DNA of 39,201 bases from UHGV virus genome UHGV-0121072, one strand, 5' to 3'. Both the position numbers and the translations under genes were made by a program. Of the stretch, positions 15,883 through 22,734 are shown in pieces (positions within the stretch are counted from its first letter, which is position 1; every line of letters begins with the position of its first letter). Source of the stretch: a virus. The notes beneath the pieces are model-generated. The model saw only the letters and a list, made by a program, of their open reading frames with translations, ran no database searches and was not told where the DNA came from.

Positions 15883-16146
15883 TTACTGTACTCCATATCC
15901 AGTGTCATTATCTTCCGTAGCGGAGAGCACCTTATCGTACTCTGCGTTCAGGGCCTCCATATCAGCCAGCGTCTTCTCGTCCACAGACACCTTGCTTAAC
16001 ACAAAGTTGTGACGAGCTAGCAGCTTCTCAATGGCGTTGTAGAGCTGAGGTGAACGCTTAGAGTCATCCCGCAGGTCTTGCAGCATGAGTCGAGCACGTT
16101 CAGTATCCAGCATCAAGAGGAACTTCTCTAAGTCCATCTGCGTCAT
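15883..16146 (-). CDS. gp18: Terminase small subunit
   Basis: 87 aa; synteny (after holin, before spanins) and RSPQLYNAIEKLLARH resembling T7 gp18. Confidence 0.7.
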   Translation of the reverse strand: MTQMDLEKFLLMLDTERARLMLQDLRDDSKRSPQLYNAIEKLLARHNFVLSKVSVDEKTLADMEALNAEYDKVLSATEDNDTGYGVQ

Positions 16147-16337
16147 GTTTTACCACCTCCTTTAATCGTTTTGTAGACTAGCACACCAATCTGGACAACG
16201 GTGTACGCGATAGCTGCAACGTAGAACCATTCGTTCAGTGTAAGTCCGAAGAAGAACCGACTGGCACCATCAGCCGCAGCGGTCCCGACGATAGGAGAGG
16301 CTTTAAGGACCTCATTCTTGAAGTCTAACTCAATCAT
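16143..16337 (-). CDS. gp17.5: Holin (class II)
   Basis: 64 aa; KASPIVGTAAADGASRFFFGLTLNEWFYVAAIAYTVVQIG nearly identical to T7 gp17.5. Confidence 0.85.
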   Translation of the reverse strand: MIELDFKNEVLKASPIVGTAAADGASRFFFGLTLNEWFYVAAIAYTVVQIGVLVYKTIKGGGKT

Positions 16338-16448
16338 AAAACCTCCAGTTTAAAGCGGGACGTCCGTGACCCAAAGTTGTTACCTTACGTTGGTCAGCGT
16401 GTAGTTAGCCTATAATGAGAAACTAACACCGCCGAAGCTGGGTTTTGA

Positions 16449-18782
16449 TTATGCACTATTAGCGGGTCTGTCTAAGTACCATCCATAGTTTGTTTTAGTC
16501 AATTGTATAAGCTCCCCGTTTGTTTTGTATTGAGTAACACCAGACGCCGTATTGTACATTATCCTCTCATTAACATTAACGCCACCTCCTTGTTTGACAA
16601 GGGTAACTACTGTACGTGACGAGAGTGGGAGTATACGTATTGTTTTGCCTACATACCCACCAGTTATTTTAGTGATCGCCGAGCCAGAGGCCCCCGAATC
16701 GAGATACAATAAATCCACCGCATCGGCATCAATGGTAGAAACAACTGAGTTTACGGTAGAAGTTGTTGCAGCGTTTTCCCTTACGAAAGACGAGCCATTC
16801 CAGCGGTACATCAACCCATCCGACAGACCAATAACCTTCTCATTAACCCCAATATCAGGCGCGTAAGTTTTAGATGTATCCACTATTTTAAAAGTACCGC
16901 AAAACGGAACGGGGATAATATTCGAGCCAGTTAAACGGTTAACTGTATATAGGGAGTTATTGACAGTCCATTGCCTACCATTCCATACACTCATGAAAGC
17001 CCCTGACGACAAAAGAACCGTAGAACTATAGCCGGTTTCAACATGCGCAGATTCAGACAATAACCCTTTATCTTGTGGGTTACTGAAATCGTCAGTGCAA
17101 TCAAATAGTCTTAAGTTAGCGCGCCCCTCGAATTTTCCTGTAGAACCAACAGGGGCCACAACGAAAAGATAATCCTTATCAAAACCATAATCAGGGCCAA
17201 CGCGTAAGAACGACGCCATACAGTTAGTGGTAGGGAACTGCCCTTTTACAACCCACTTTCCACTAGAATCTTGCATTAATAGCTTTTGAATGGCTATTGT
17301 GTACGACTTAGTAGTGGTATCCGCAGCACGCTCAATAGCGAAAGGCGTTCCGTCATAAAAATTTCCGAAACCAATTTCACCACCAGATGTGCCTATAGTA
17401 TCGGTATCTGTGTCTTTCCTGACATCTTCACCATAAATATAATTGCCGTCTTCGTCAGTAGTTATATACCCTTCTACAATACCTGAAGAAATAGTAGTAA
17501 GGTAGTAATAGGGTATCGCAGGCCTGCCATTAATGTATCCTACTTGCGTTGGTGCGATAGATGAGAAATACGCACCTGCAGGCTTAACGGCGGATGTAAT
17601 ATCAACTGGCGCACTCCATGTCTCCCCCCGATCTTTAGATACGCAATATTCAATAGTGGATGTGTTGTCCGGGTTTGTGCCTTGTTGTGCGTGACCCCAC
17701 CCCGTAATCCCCTTCATTGATGTAAAGAAACAATACAAATAGCCATCAAGATTATTCAGGAATAGTACCGTTTCAGATGTGGCATACCCTGGACCTTTGT
17801 TAACAACAGTTCCAGTTGTCCAGTTCACACCGTTATCATCAGATATTAGGTAATCGATGTGCATAGGTGTACCGTCCTGTCCTGGGTCAATATTGGCACC
17901 ATCCTTCACTGTGTAGATGCATACCACCCTACCACCTGGAAGTGATACCGCTTTTGGTGCAAAGTTAAATACATTCTCTACATAAGTTTGCAACTGTAAG
18001 CTCAAATTATTGTTAAAGCTTCTTGAGTGTTTATTCCCAAAAGTGAAATTAAATCTATTTTTTGCAAATGATAGCCTTTTGTAAAGCTCAAAATCTTTAT
18101 CCTTGACCGCTCCGTTAACTAAATCAACTCCGTCATCACCAGCTAGGTCACTTCTTAAACTTGCATCGCCAACACTAACCCATGCGTCAGATGATTTAGG
18201 AGTTGAACCAGCAGGAACGTTCTTTGGAAGAGTACCGTCCCAGCGGTAATACTCACCATCCTCTTCCCATAGCAGGACCTCGTTCCATTTTGTAACGTTG
18301 AAGCCTTTCTCGAAGGAGCGGCGGGTAATATAGCCAAATAGACCAGCTTCCTTTATACTAGCAGCGATTCGGCGTGCTTCATCCTCGCTATCCTTAGCGT
18401 TGCCAGCAGAGCTACCAGCAGCCTCGGCATACTCCTTCGCCAAGTCAACCGTTTGGTCTCGACCTTCTTCTGCAATATGGATAGCCTGAAGCTCTGCATT
18501 GGTCAGGTCAATAGCTGTTAAGACTGAGCCATTCCTGAAGTCTACCACTAAGTCAGTTCCAGTCTGACGGTGAATACGAACGATGTCAAAACCTGATTGG
18601 TCAACCAACATCTCAATCATCGTTGGGTTAAGGAATCGGTAATCTCGACCAACTTCCAGTACACGGTTCAGGGTAGGGTTAGAGCTATTCACCAGCGTAA
18701 CAACAACAAACGTTCTGGCTAGGTAGTCGAACTCGATCCTGTACCGAGTGCTTCCTGAAGGGAATTGTGTAATCGTTGACAT
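16449..18782 (-). CDS. gp17: Tail fiber/tailspike: T7 gp17-like N-terminal anchor domain fused to a sialidase-like (Asp-box) C-terminal domain
   Basis: 777 aa; first ~150 aa resemble the T7 gp17 N-terminus (FDYLARTFVVVTL, LVDFRNGSVLTAIDL); C-terminal part has two Asp-box motifs SDDNGVNW and SKDRGETW. Confidence 0.88.
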   Translation of the reverse strand: MSTITQFPSGSTRYRIEFDYLARTFVVVTLVNSSNPTLNRVLEVGRDYRFLNPTMIEMLVDQSGFDIVRIHRQTGTDLVVDFRNGSVLTAIDLTNAELQAIHIAEEGRDQTVDLAKEYAEAAGSSAGNAKDSEDEARRIAASIKEAGLFGYITRRSFEKGFNVTKWNEVLLWEEDGEYYRWDGTLPKNVPAGSTPKSSDAWVSVGDASLRSDLAGDDGVDLVNGAVKDKDFELYKRLSFAKNRFNFTFGNKHSRSFNNNLSLQLQTYVENVFNFAPKAVSLPGGRVVCIYTVKDGANIDPGQDGTPMHIDYLISDDNGVNWTTGTVVNKGPGYATSETVLFLNNLDGYLYCFFTSMKGITGWGHAQQGTNPDNTSTIEYCVSKDRGETWSAPVDITSAVKPAGAYFSSIAPTQVGYINGRPAIPYYYLTTISSGIVEGYITTDEDGNYIYGEDVRKDTDTDTIGTSGGEIGFGNFYDGTPFAIERAADTTTKSYTIAIQKLLMQDSSGKWVVKGQFPTTNCMASFLRVGPDYGFDKDYLFVVAPVGSTGKFEGRANLRLFDCTDDFSNPQDKGLLSESAHVETGYSSTVLLSSGAFMSVWNGRQWTVNNSLYTVNRLTGSNIIPVPFCGTFKIVDTSKTYAPDIGVNEKVIGLSDGLMYRWNGSSFVRENAATTSTVNSVVSTIDADAVDLLYLDSGASGSAITKITGGYVGKTIRILPLSSRTVVTLVKQGGGVNVNERIMYNTASGVTQYKTNGELIQLTKTNYGWYLDRPANSA

Positions 18783-18828
18783 TATGCCTCCTTTGTGATT
18801 TAAATGGAGACCTATGGTAGCGCCTCCC

Positions 18829-18850
18829 GTTTCCTATAGTGATAGTTTAG
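18829..18850 (-). promoter_or_regulatory. Phage RNAP promoter (CTAAACTATCACTATAGGAA) upstream of the tail fiber gene
   Basis: Consensus copy; position equals T7 phi17. Confidence 0.7.
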
Positions 18851-21800
18851 TCCTTGATGTGGATACCTTGCTCCTCAAACGTTCCAAGCAACAGCTTCTG
18901 GGTAATTGGGTCGTTCGGAACCAGTTCACGGAACGTATTATACATCCCGGTCATGTAGTCACGCTCGTTGACACGAGTATCAGCCTTGAGGTAGCCAGCC
19001 AAGTTGTAAGCCGAAGCGCCAACGTTAGCAGCATATCCGAAAGCTGGAACCTGCTCCAAGAAGTTACCAACAACATTCATCACAGGGCCACTTGTAGCTG
19101 CACCATATGCGATGGCACGTTCAGGCTTCTCTGTAGGCGAACGAGGTAGGATAGACGAACGGAGCATCTTAGTGTCCTCATATCCAGCGATGCCACCCAG
19201 AATGTTGGCGACACCAAGTGGTCCACCGAGATGTGAGCTACGGGACAGAGCCGCATATCCAATCATCGTCGGGTCCAGAGCTTGCTTGAGGTAGTCGCGG
19301 TCACGACCGTCCTGCATAGCGTAAGCCTTGATGTGTGCCTGAGTCATGTAGTAGATACCAGCAAGACCCATAGACATCACAGTGGACAGAGCAGCGTCCA
19401 TCGCTCGGTTGTTCTTCGTTGCGTTATAGAAGGTCCGCATGGTACGCCCATTGATGGACTTGATGACGAAGTTCTTAAACTGAAGGACAGTCTTAGCTAG
19501 AGGACCATAAGCCTTGGCGTCCATGTTGCTCAGCTTGTGTGGACGAAGCAGTGTCTCGTCAGCGATGGTGTCACCCATACGCCACAGGTCCATAGCCCTT
19601 GGGTCCTGACTGAACGCCTTCTTATCCTTGATGATGTGCTTCCCGTCTGGACCACGCGTCACTGACTCACGGATGAGGGACTTAATGCCCTTCCATTGGT
19701 CATCCGAGATACCAGCGGTCTTCAGCCATCGGTCATCGAACTTACGCTTACTACCAGTCAGGCTATGCTCCACGATGTCAGACAGGAATCCTTGACGTCC
19801 AGCATCTAACAGGTAGTTGGTCGTACCGTTGAGGACTTTAGTGAACGGAGAGCGTACTGCAAGTTCACCAGTGTAATACTTGGCAGTCCCCAGAGCTGTA
19901 GCTGTACCACGACCTAGGTCACTGTAAGACCTCAGACGGTCAATGACATCCTGTTTAGACGGACGGATTGAGTCATCCAATTCCTTACCGAAGATGACAT
20001 TGTGCAGGTCCTTAATCTCTGAGGCCCCCACCTTCTTGTTACGGAAGGCTAGGTCACGGAACATCGGGACTCCATGCAGCAGCGCCCGAACGTTACCACG
20101 AGCCAGCATACCACCAATCTCCGTTAAGTTCTGAACACCCATGTAGGCATTCTTAGCGAAGAACGATAGGTCTGTCATTGTGCGCATCACTGTAGCGAAG
20201 GCCGCATCATCAGCACCATCACGTCGAGCGCGACCAGTTAGAATCTTCAATGTGTCACGTAAGGTAGATACTTCACCTTTCAACTTACCGTCATCCCCAG
20301 CCTTGTTCATCATGGTCTCAACCAAATCCTTCATGTCCTTCGTGGTTTTGCCTGTACCAGCCATGATAGCAATATCGCCATTAACTCGACGGTTGTAGGC
20401 CGGGACAATCTTGTCCATGTCCCACTCACGCAGGTTGTTGACACTGAAGGTCTGACCATTAGGTAGGACGATTGACATATCGCTATCGAACAGGTTACGA
20501 GCCTCAAGGAAGCTGTTGTTCTCCAGACCAACCAGACCGTTGATGTTCTCTTCCATTACGGATGAACGTTCGAACTGCTCGGTGTGAGAGATACCGTAAG
20601 CCTTATCGTTGGCGTACTTATCGACCGCAGCAGCAAGTCCATCTGGAGTCAACGTAGGGTCAGCCTCTAAGAGTGCCTCGTCCACGCGTTTCTTGACTTC
20701 AGGTCGAGACGCATAGCTGGTCAACCATGACTTCTTGATGGCCTCCTGCAACGCCTCTGGACTCCCAAGCTCCTTGATGTACAGCTCCTTCATCTGTTTG
20801 CTATACACATGAGGGACGTAGGTTCCCTTGAAGCGGCTACCAGGAAAGATAGACTTAGCGTCTGCGCGACCGAACATAGCCGGGTTCTCCATCATCTCAC
20901 GCTTGGCGTCGAACTGGTTCTTCAGCAGGTCATAGACTTTCAGTTCTCCCGGAGTAAGTTCAGCCTTCAGGTTTCCGCTACCATCTTCGATAGCCATAGA
21001 CACCCGCTGGTAGATGTCCTGACGGAATGCGCCAGAGTCTCGCCAGAATGCTGTCTGGAAGTACGGGTCCTTGAGTGCCTCAGTAACCGCATCGTCGATG
21101 TCGTTGTAGAACCGATGGTCCACAGCACGAAGTCTCTCGAATACGTCTGACGCAGTGGTCCCGATTTTACCTGAAGCCCCAGACTGCATACCAGTTGGTG
21201 AACGCACTAAGTCAGCAGCGACCCCACGAATCTCAGGGTTCTCAGACCGAAGCAGCTTCAGACCAATCTCGGTAAGTCCACTAAGGTTCACACCAGCAGC
21301 GGCACGTTCCGGCTCAATCACTTCGTCAAAGACCTGACGTGTCTTAGGGTTCAGAGGGTTCTCACCAATCAGGATTGAACCATCCTCCAGCCGCACACTA
21401 CCCGGCTCATTCGGAACGTCAGCGAACTTAACGCCTTGATGACTAAAGGTCTGCTCACCTTCCTGAATAGGGAGACGAGACAGGTCCTGACCATCAACGT
21501 TACGAGCGGTCTCACGAGCTTCCAGACGTGTAGCTGGGCCAGCAAACTCATTAGTGTTGCGACCTAAGGCTCTTCCTAACCCATCAGCGATAGCAGTCAT
21601 ACCACCACCGAAGAGAGCACCACCAAGGATAGCTTCAGCCACATGAGCATCACCACCAGACACTGAGGTACGGGCCATCTCGGACACACCAGCCAGTGCT
21701 CCAGATTGAGCAGCCACGGTGAACATCTTGTTGACCAGCTTACCGCCTTTACCAACCTGTCCAGCGATAGGAACGTATGTCAGAGGGTCTACACCAGCAC

Positions 21801-22734
21801 CAATCACACCAGCGGCTAACTGAGCACCAGTCCCAGCCTTGGCCTTCTCTTGGTCCAACTTCTGGTTCTCAAGCGCCAAGTTAATAAGCTCAGTAAGGTT
21901 CTGAGGAGAGCCACCAGTAATGACTCCGTAATACTGAGGCAGAACCCCAGCGTTACGAATCTGGTCCAGCTCCTCACGAGACCACTTATGGTTGTTCCAT
22001 CGGGTTGGGTTGAACACATCGCCAATGACATCAAGTGAGTCCTCGGTCTGACCAGCGCGGATAGCCACGCCGACCATAGAGTTCTTCACTTCAGCTTCTG
22101 TAGCAGGACCAAAACCGAACCACGTAGAGCGGTCCTCTCGTTCCTGCATGGTATCGCCAGTAGCCTTATAGAACATCTCACCGAACGATTCGTTTGGAGC
22201 TTCAGGTGCTTGACCCTCAATGTTCAGACCAGCAGCGGTCGGAAGGTTCTCACCCAGAGCTACTTTAGGTTTCGCCTTTAATCCTTCCGTGAGTGCGTCA
22301 AATACGTTAGCGCTTACTGGTGGAGTCTTTGGGCTAATGCCATTGAGTGCTCGTGCGACTCCCTTCTGATAGACTTCAGGGTTGTACCGGGAGCCTGTCT
22401 CATGGAAGCTTATAGCTTGAGCCAGAGAAGACAGGGTGTCAGGGTCCGATAGGTCTAGACTCTGGGTAGCTGGAATACCAGTTGCAGCCACCACTGAGTC
22501 AATATAAGCCTTAGTGTCGTTCTCGTTAGGAGGCGCCCATCGGTTGATAATCTTCTCGATGGAGTCATAACCTTGGCGACTGTATGACAGCAGGTTTTTA
22601 CCTAAAGCTCGGACGCCAGACTCTGGACTATCGAAGGTGACGAATGCGCCATCATCTCCAGTCATTCCTTCCCATTGGTCCTTACTTACCCGGATATTAC
22701 CCGGATTGTTATTGCGAATACCACGAGTCGCCAT
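18847..22734 (-). CDS. gp16: Internal virion protein D (ejectosome core)
   Basis: 1295 aa; central and C-terminal regions match T7 gp16 (GVIGAGVDPL, RLEARETARN, VRSPTGMQSGASGK, NSFLEARNLFDSD, MDLWR); N-terminal ~180 aa differ from T7. Confidence 0.9.
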   Translation of the reverse strand: MATRGIRNNNPGNIRVSKDQWEGMTGDDGAFVTFDSPESGVRALGKNLLSYSRQGYDSIEKIINRWAPPNENDTKAYIDSVVAATGIPATQSLDLSDPDTLSSLAQAISFHETGSRYNPEVYQKGVARALNGISPKTPPVSANVFDALTEGLKAKPKVALGENLPTAAGLNIEGQAPEAPNESFGEMFYKATGDTMQEREDRSTWFGFGPATEAEVKNSMVGVAIRAGQTEDSLDVIGDVFNPTRWNNHKWSREELDQIRNAGVLPQYYGVITGGSPQNLTELINLALENQKLDQEKAKAGTGAQLAAGVIGAGVDPLTYVPIAGQVGKGGKLVNKMFTVAAQSGALAGVSEMARTSVSGGDAHVAEAILGGALFGGGMTAIADGLGRALGRNTNEFAGPATRLEARETARNVDGQDLSRLPIQEGEQTFSHQGVKFADVPNEPGSVRLEDGSILIGENPLNPKTRQVFDEVIEPERAAAGVNLSGLTEIGLKLLRSENPEIRGVAADLVRSPTGMQSGASGKIGTTASDVFERLRAVDHRFYNDIDDAVTEALKDPYFQTAFWRDSGAFRQDIYQRVSMAIEDGSGNLKAELTPGELKVYDLLKNQFDAKREMMENPAMFGRADAKSIFPGSRFKGTYVPHVYSKQMKELYIKELGSPEALQEAIKKSWLTSYASRPEVKKRVDEALLEADPTLTPDGLAAAVDKYANDKAYGISHTEQFERSSVMEENINGLVGLENNSFLEARNLFDSDMSIVLPNGQTFSVNNLREWDMDKIVPAYNRRVNGDIAIMAGTGKTTKDMKDLVETMMNKAGDDGKLKGEVSTLRDTLKILTGRARRDGADDAAFATVMRTMTDLSFFAKNAYMGVQNLTEIGGMLARGNVRALLHGVPMFRDLAFRNKKVGASEIKDLHNVIFGKELDDSIRPSKQDVIDRLRSYSDLGRGTATALGTAKYYTGELAVRSPFTKVLNGTTNYLLDAGRQGFLSDIVEHSLTGSKRKFDDRWLKTAGISDDQWKGIKSLIRESVTRGPDGKHIIKDKKAFSQDPRAMDLWRMGDTIADETLLRPHKLSNMDAKAYGPLAKTVLQFKNFVIKSINGRTMRTFYNATKNNRAMDAALSTVMSMGLAGIYYMTQAHIKAYAMQDGRDRDYLKQALDPTMIGYAALSRSSHLGGPLGVANILGGIAGYEDTKMLRSSILPRSPTEKPERAIAYGAATSGPVMNVVGNFLEQVPAFGYAANVGASAYNLAGYLKADTRVNERDYMTGMYNTFRELVPNDPITQKLLLGTFEEQGIHIKD

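Follow-up and report, generated by a model that had tools for sequence, protein, structure and literature searches.

A Kayfunavirus tailspike with a predicted GH33 sialidase-like module acquired as a recombination cassette

Introduction

The viral genome UHGV-0121072 was analysed as one stretch of 39,201 nucleotides (the window). It carries a complete tailspike gene at the position of T7 gene 17 (Table 1). The sequence-only reading of this gene had proposed an enzymatic, receptor-degrading spike with a sialidase-like C-terminal domain of the Asp-box (BNR) type on a T7-type fiber anchor. The locus raises the question of whether the spike is such an enzyme, which sugar it would attack, and where its C-terminal part came from. 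The gene product is the only receptor-binding tailspike of a T7-like podovirus of Escherichia coli, a Kayfunavirus, and recombination at conserved junction motifs brought in its module as a cassette. Most likely the spike works as an active glycosidase that attacks an O-antigen or capsule with a sialic-acid-like sugar; based on residues mapped from the sequence, we give this reading a probability of about 0.6.

Predicted fold of the module

The structure of residues 225-777 was modeled with AlphaFold2 using 21 homologues (mean predicted local distance difference test score, pLDDT, 78.5; predicted template modelling score, pTM, 0.74). In the model a short, poorly predicted linker is followed by a long run of four-stranded sheets (residues ~260-612) and a separate C-terminal beta domain. 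Residues ~260-612 are predicted to fold as a six-bladed propeller of the sialidase type found in glycoside hydrolase family 33 (GH33). The fold score was 37.1 for the gut microbial sialidase Hz136, 35.4 for both the P. gingivalis sialidase and C. perfringens NanH, and 34.9 for the S. typhimurium sialidase; a GH93 arabinanase (27.9) and the endosialidase of phage phi92 (25.7) scored lower. A profile of the module family matched the GH33 structures of Bacteroides and Parabacteroides over the full catalytic domain, with E values from 3e-16 to 2e-15. A role in trimer stabilisation or in additional glycan binding is probable for the C-terminal beta-sandwich.

Both Asp-boxes named in the sequence-only reading, SDDNGVNW and SKDRGETW, are present in the spike and lie inside the predicted propeller. 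Across all six reading frames of the window (78,398 codons), the strict pattern S.D.G..[WFY] has just two matches. Because both matches fall in the tailspike open reading frame, the boxes are not regarded as chance strings. Compared with GH33 structures, two boxes are canonical and further positions are degenerate (TDEDGNY, CTDDFSNP). Two observations that could have spoken against the earlier proposal, a non-enzymatic predicted fold and Asp-boxes outside a propeller, were looked for and neither was made.

Predicted active site

Active-site residues were mapped by profile alignment to five solved GH33 enzymes. Conservation was followed in 25 lineages of the family, aligned over 361 columns and reaching down to 21% identity. 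Only 17 of these columns are invariant across all lineages; they include D299, E469, R485, Y585, and the proline of the FRIP motif (P276). In the alignment Y585, E469, and D299 take the places of the Tyr nucleophile, its Glu partner, and the Asp acid/base, and R485 and R554 those of the second and third arginines of the triad. Of the six canonical catalytic positions, five are thus predicted to hold conserved residues, and the earlier proposal of a sialidase-like enzymatic tailspike is supported to that extent. Purifying selection acting on a functional active site would produce such a pattern, which is our main argument for catalysis.

The sixth position differs. The first arginine of the triad is replaced by Phe274 in the FRIP equivalent, N-F-A-P. 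At position 274 the ten lineages of the window's clade have Phe or Tyr, one intermediate lineage has Gln, and each of the 14 outgroup lineages has Arg, among them Kuttervirus ECML-4 gp189 (YRMP) and an 873-residue Kayfunavirus spike (LRLP). Since the arginine is kept in every outgroup lineage, its loss is a derived, clade-specific trait. The carboxylate pocket of the window's clade differs from that of cellular sialidases because of this replacement.

Three basic residues, K293 (17904-17906), R285 (17928-17930), and K329 (17796-17798), are invariant in the window's clade and mostly hydrophobic or variable in relatives with the FRIP arginine. According to the secondary structure of the model, K293 adjoins Phe274 from the neighbouring strand, at the end of that strand towards the active site. 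It aligns with the Arg of a YDVR stretch in Bacteroides sialidases. We conjecture that K293 may partly substitute for the missing first arginine. R285 was also considered as a relocated first arginine and was rejected as unlikely, being placed by the same secondary structure in a turn on the opposite face of the propeller. The presence of R285 tracks the loss of the FRIP arginine, yet R285 and this arginine occur side by side in three intermediate lineages. K293 may be the better candidate for the replacement.

Table 1. Features of the tailspike locus and their positions in the window
Feature	Positions	Strand	Basis
Tailspike gene, complete (gene 17 position)	16449..18782	-	Open reading frame list: ATG to stop, 777 residues
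T7 gp17-type N-terminal tail-docking anchor, residues 1-150	18333..18782	-	PF03906; 9vvr_A; T7 gp17 structures
Tail_spike_N (TSP1/gp66-type) adaptor, residues 155-206	18165..18320	-	PF18668, E 2.2e-14
5' crossover zone, gene nt 526-595, residues ~176-199	18188..18257	-	Overlap of Kayfunavirus and donor-module identity (blastn)
Six-bladed beta-propeller of GH33 sialidase type, putative catalytic domain, residues ~260-612	16947..18005	-	Predicted fold
FRIP equivalent N-F-A-P, residues 273-276	17955..17966	-	Hidden Markov model alignment, 'nfaP' against 'FRIP' of five GH33 structures
D299 codon, predicted acid/base catalyst	17886..17888	-	Aligned to Asp-bearing 'VDL' loop of GH33; invariant 25/25
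Asp-box 1 SDDNGVNW, residues 314-321	17820..17843	-	Regular expression; aligned to first Asp-box of Bacteroides sialidases
Asp-box 2 SKDRGETW, residues 382-389	17616..17639	-	Regular expression; aligned to 'SxDdGkTW' of GH33 structures
E469 codon, predicted partner of nucleophile Tyr	17376..17378	-	GH33 alignment; invariant 25/25
R485 codon, predicted second triad arginine	17328..17330	-	Aligned to 'MRD' arginine; invariant 25/25
R554 codon, predicted third triad arginine	17121..17123	-	Aligned to 'GRN' arginine; Arg in 24/25
Y585 codon, predicted nucleophile ('GYS')	17028..17030	-	GH33 alignment; invariant 25/25
C-terminal beta-sandwich domain, residues ~616-777	16452..16937	-	
Co-transferred non-coding stretch after stop, 24-29 nt, 3' crossover	16420..16448	-	Donor identity reaches 16420-16425

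Alternative interpretations

Several observations weigh against an active sialidase-like enzyme. The FRIP arginine, which is lost here, is important for activity in cellular sialidases. The active site was mapped by alignment of sequences, and the canonical Asp-boxes number two versus the usual four or five. The protein scores below the Pfam gathering cut-offs of both BNR_2 (PF13088; 28.9 vs 31.4 bits) and the BNR repeat (21.6 vs 27 bits), and no NCBIfam model matches it. No biochemical or structural characterisation of any member of the module family was found in the literature searched. No match to the window module or to its prophage copy was obtained in 5,426 complete E. coli genomes (megablast, blastn), and the substrate could not be inferred from the prophage-bearing E. 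coli genomes or from the host records of the carrier phages. The absence from complete RefSeq genomes of E. coli suggests a rare host serotype, with which it fits, but proves nothing. Taken with the predicted fold, the Asp-boxes, the second and third arginines, the Tyr/Glu pair, and the Asp, these results indicate a protein that would work like a GH33 sialidase but is not filed as a canonical member, as it lacks the FRIP arginine and stays below the Pfam cut-off.

The loss of the first arginine would also fit a propeller that is a catalytically dead, lectin-like receptor binder with a sialidase fold, comparable to the attachment proteins of paramyxoviruses. In a pure binder, drift would be expected at both the nucleophile Tyr and the acid/base Asp; here, however, the five other catalytic positions are kept down to ~21% identity, even though so few columns of the alignment are invariant. 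Two arginines are moreover enough for phage endosialidases such as endoNF, which work with this reduced set. We consider a dead lectin unlikely. The same remodelled carboxylate-binding triad would be explained if the spike were an active glycosidase of the sialidase fold for a sugar that is not sialic-acid-like, either neutral or of a different charge. Two of the three arginines are retained, however, as is the Tyr/Glu nucleophile pair, an adaptation of GH33 enzymes to an anomeric carbon that bears a carboxylate, and GH33 enzymes outscore GH93 by far in the fold comparison. This alternative appears improbable.

The backbone of the genome suggests another candidate, a K1-capsule endosialidase of family GH58 such as phage K1F has, this phage being the type species of Kayfunavirus; some members of the genus carry endosialidases. 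The fold scores given above speak against it, and the characteristic GH58 domains are absent according to Pfam: neither an endosialidase propeller with nested beta-barrel nor the stalk or the C-terminal intramolecular chaperone domain was detected. This identity was rejected on both grounds and is very improbable. The reading that we prefer remains an active glycosidase on a sialic-acid-like polysaccharide.

Comparison with known sialidases and tailspikes

The GH33 exo-alpha-sialidases used for comparison were those of B. thetaiotaomicron (BTSA, 4bbw), Parabacteroides (4fj6), Hz136 (6mnj), C. perfringens (NanH, 8ub5), and S. typhimurium (1dil). The window module is 10-20% identical to them, and it departs from them in the Phe at the FRIP arginine, in the number of canonical Asp-boxes, and in falling under the BNR_2 cut-off. 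Its target is presumably a bacterial polysaccharide, whereas theirs are host sialoglycans. The GH58 endosialidases (endoNF of K1F; phi92, 4hiz) resemble the window spike in using a sialidase-fold propeller as a tailspike of modular, horizontally acquired design, and K1F shares its genus backbone with the window phage.

Closer relatives were found among other phages. Spikes of Kuttervirus (ECML-4 gp189, FEC14, and Sajous1 gp139, annotated 'exo-alpha-sialidase') and of metagenomic Kayfunavirus (P0023/P0024, 873 residues) belong to the same module family and share the domain order, the D/E/R/R/Y set, and the motif of the C-terminal domain. They are 22-33% identical to the window spike; unlike it, they keep the FRIP arginine and have a hydrophobic residue at the place of K293. 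The catalytic set of P0023/P0024 and of ECML-4 gp189 (L005:2317-4551) was seen to be fully canonical, and many Kuttervirus carry such spikes.

Mass spectrometry has identified the Sajous1 'exo-alpha-sialidase' in the virion (PMC10892097). The characterised sialidase-type tailspikes are GH58 endosialidases (PMC6966330), and GH33-like phage spikes appear as database annotations only. No receptor is assigned in papers naming RPN242 or, for the GH33-like spikes, in the Ackermannviridae subtype study, and no paper on BDX09 was found. The tailspikes of EP75 were rejected as a relevant comparison, being beta-helix enzymes.

Anchor and adaptor

The first ~150 residues had been assigned to the T7 gp17 N-terminal domain that docks onto the tail, and this assignment was confirmed. 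Phage_T7_tail (PF03906) matched residues 10-113 (E 7.5e-15; 55.4 bits vs a cut-off of 25.2). Residues 1-220 are ~95% identical to a solved Kayfunavirus tail spike (9vvr_A), whose entry holds 18 chains, as expected of six trimers, and the N-terminus also matches the structures of the T7 gp17 N-terminal domain (7boz, 8dsp). At the nucleotide level the anchor region is 92-96% identical to Kayfunavirus gp17 genes.

The Tail_spike_N adaptor, which is common to tailspikes of many phage genera, sits between the anchor and the receptor-binding module (53.7 bits vs a cut-off of 25). Residues 148-224 match CBA120 TSP3 and TSP4 and further tailspike structures. The likeness to T7 gp17 lies in the PF03906 anchor, and that to 9vvr_A extends through residue 220; beyond ~residue 220 the window spike is unrelated to both. 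The sequence-only reading had described the remaining ~620 residues as unrelated to the T7 fiber. The difference from T7 stands for everything after ~residue 220; behind the PF18668 adaptor, this part resolves into two domains, a predicted propeller of ~350 residues and a C-terminal beta domain of ~165 residues.

Recombination cassette and its carriers

Kayfunavirus genomes such as LNA3 and CHX131 match the tailspike gene over its first ~600 nt only. The limits of the foreign part were determined with blastn. Identity to the Kayfunavirus LM33_P1 (92%) comes in from upstream, reaches as far as gene nt 595, and begins again at window position 16414. Identity to the Sashavirus BDX09P1 (87%) extends from gene nt 526 to 29 nt beyond the stop codon, and that to the Agtrevirus RPN242 and the Gamaleyavirus nithesis (77%) from nt 594-600 to 24 nt beyond the stop. 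The cassette covers window ~16420-18187, that is, everything past ~residue 200 plus ~25 nt beyond the stop codon. The 5' crossover maps within the Tail_spike_N motif; the 3' crossover lies past the gene, in a short non-coding stretch.

It has been described that receptor-binding genes of E. coli phages have conserved junction motifs, with 'motif one' where the anchor domain ends and 'motif three' downstream (PMC10408124). The 5' crossover zone corresponds to 'motif one' of that study, and the co-transferred non-coding stretch probably to the conserved downstream 'motif three' or to the terminator of receptor-binding genes. A weak hairpin, AAACCCAGCTTCGGCGGTGTT, was observed within 16420..16448 on the minus strand and moves with the module; a simple terminator scan did not call this stretch. 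The GC content across the cassette is 0.436-0.460 versus 0.49-0.52 in the neighbouring kilobases (window 16001-19000), a dip that fits a foreign origin of the module.

The same module was found over its whole length, with 78-91% amino acid identity, in Sashavirus BDX09P1, in Agtrevirus RPN242, PH4, and PC3, in Gamaleyavirus nithesis, and in E. coli prophages (P0015, P0016). Over residues 225-777 the protein identity is 91% for BDX09P1, 79% for RPN242, PC3, and PH4, and 78.5% for nithesis. These carriers presumably share the same or a closely related receptor, as judged from their sequences. They differ in their anchors: in these unrelated phages and prophages the cassette occurs on four other types, namely TSP-type, gp66-type (~1050 residues), P22 head-binding, and epsilon15-like, of which the last two hold the module in E. 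coli prophages. Copies in Providencia and Morganella are ~48% identical. The prophage copies in E. coli draft genomes (L003:10001-12412; P0122-P0135) include proteins of 803 residues in an epsilon15-like context and of 693-694 residues named 'phage tailspike protein'. No serotype information was found in the prophage context of the module.

When 1.84 billion representative proteins were searched exhaustively, only 53 relatives (clusters) of the module turned up at E<=1e-3, of which 10 reached E<=1e-30. Nearly all have the length of a tailspike, and one cluster member carries the name 'exo-alpha-sialidase'. The module family is small and phage-restricted. The exact tailspike protein of the window also occurs in public sequencing runs, on nine contigs of phage size, and in the collection searched no deposited phage joins this module to a Kayfunavirus anchor.

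Genomic context

Kayfunavirus genomes (e.g., LNA3 and CHX131) align with the first 25 kb of the window at ~93% identity, over ~85% of that length. The tailspike gene is flanked upstream by a gene for a gp16-like internal virion protein (18847..22734), and genes for a holin, the small terminase, and a spanin lie downstream. The order gp16, spike, holin, small terminase is that around gene 17 in T7-like (Autographiviridae) genomes. A scan for promoters and terminators around the tailspike gene gave no signal above shuffled background.

Taken as a whole, the window (1-39201) resembles a Kayfunavirus genome that is nearly complete and reversed in orientation. Every large open reading frame was seen on the minus strand, and the cumulative GC skew declines steadily. 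The gp16-type protein, also on the minus strand, has 1295 residues and a lytic-transglycosylase-like N-terminus; its relatives are annotated as 'peptidoglycan transglycosylase' or 'internal virion protein with endolysin domain'.

Proposed function and significance

As an active glycosidase, the spike would be a trimer present in six copies per virion, docked via its gp17-type anchor by analogy with the solved Kayfunavirus and T7 tails. R485 and R554 would hold the carboxylate of a 2-keto-3-deoxy acidic sugar, such as sialic, legionaminic, or pseudaminic acid or 3-deoxy-D-manno-oct-2-ulosonic acid (Kdo). The glycosidic bond would be cleaved by the retaining GH33 mechanism, with Y585 and E469 as the nucleophile pair and D299 as the acid/base, and both an endo and an exo mode of cleavage are compatible with this scheme. 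Cutting or trimming of the O-antigen or capsule would let the phage reach the outer membrane and would set its host range.

Kdo-containing capsules of E. coli are one substrate possibility. Further candidate substrates are the E. coli O-antigens with N-acetylneuraminic acid (O24, O56, O104, O145, O171), 8-epi-legionaminic acid (O108), legionaminic acid (O161), or pseudaminic acid (O136, O165) (PMC7685785). A more specific version of this proposal, which we offer tentatively as a rather doubtful one, is that the window's clade forms a distinct, phage-only branch of the sialidase fold. Its two-arginine site, with Phe or Tyr for the FRIP arginine and with Lys293, would have evolved to cut a non-sialic nonulosonic acid (legionaminic, 8-epi-legionaminic, or pseudaminic acid) or Kdo within the chains of rare O-antigens or capsules of E. 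coli, Providencia, or Morganella. If true, this would be the first sialidase-fold endo-acting depolymerase of the 'legionaminidase/pseudaminidase' type.

This analysis adds to the sequence-only reading that the module is GH33-like rather than endosialidase-like, that it forms a cassette with exact limits which four other phage groups and prophages also carry, that its family is very small and confined to phages, and that its clade lacks the first arginine of the triad. Should none of the functional proposals hold, the locus would be one more case of modular tailspike exchange. If the spike is active, it would show a sialidase active site working without the first arginine, and activity on any of the candidate sialic-acid-like polysaccharides named above would make it a specific reagent for typing or stripping these antigens. 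Tailspike modules decide which strains are infected, and they are the parts swapped in the engineering of therapeutic or diagnostic phages. The module described here has already moved among no fewer than five types of anchor, in five groups of viruses, and thus represents a ready-made, portable specificity cassette.

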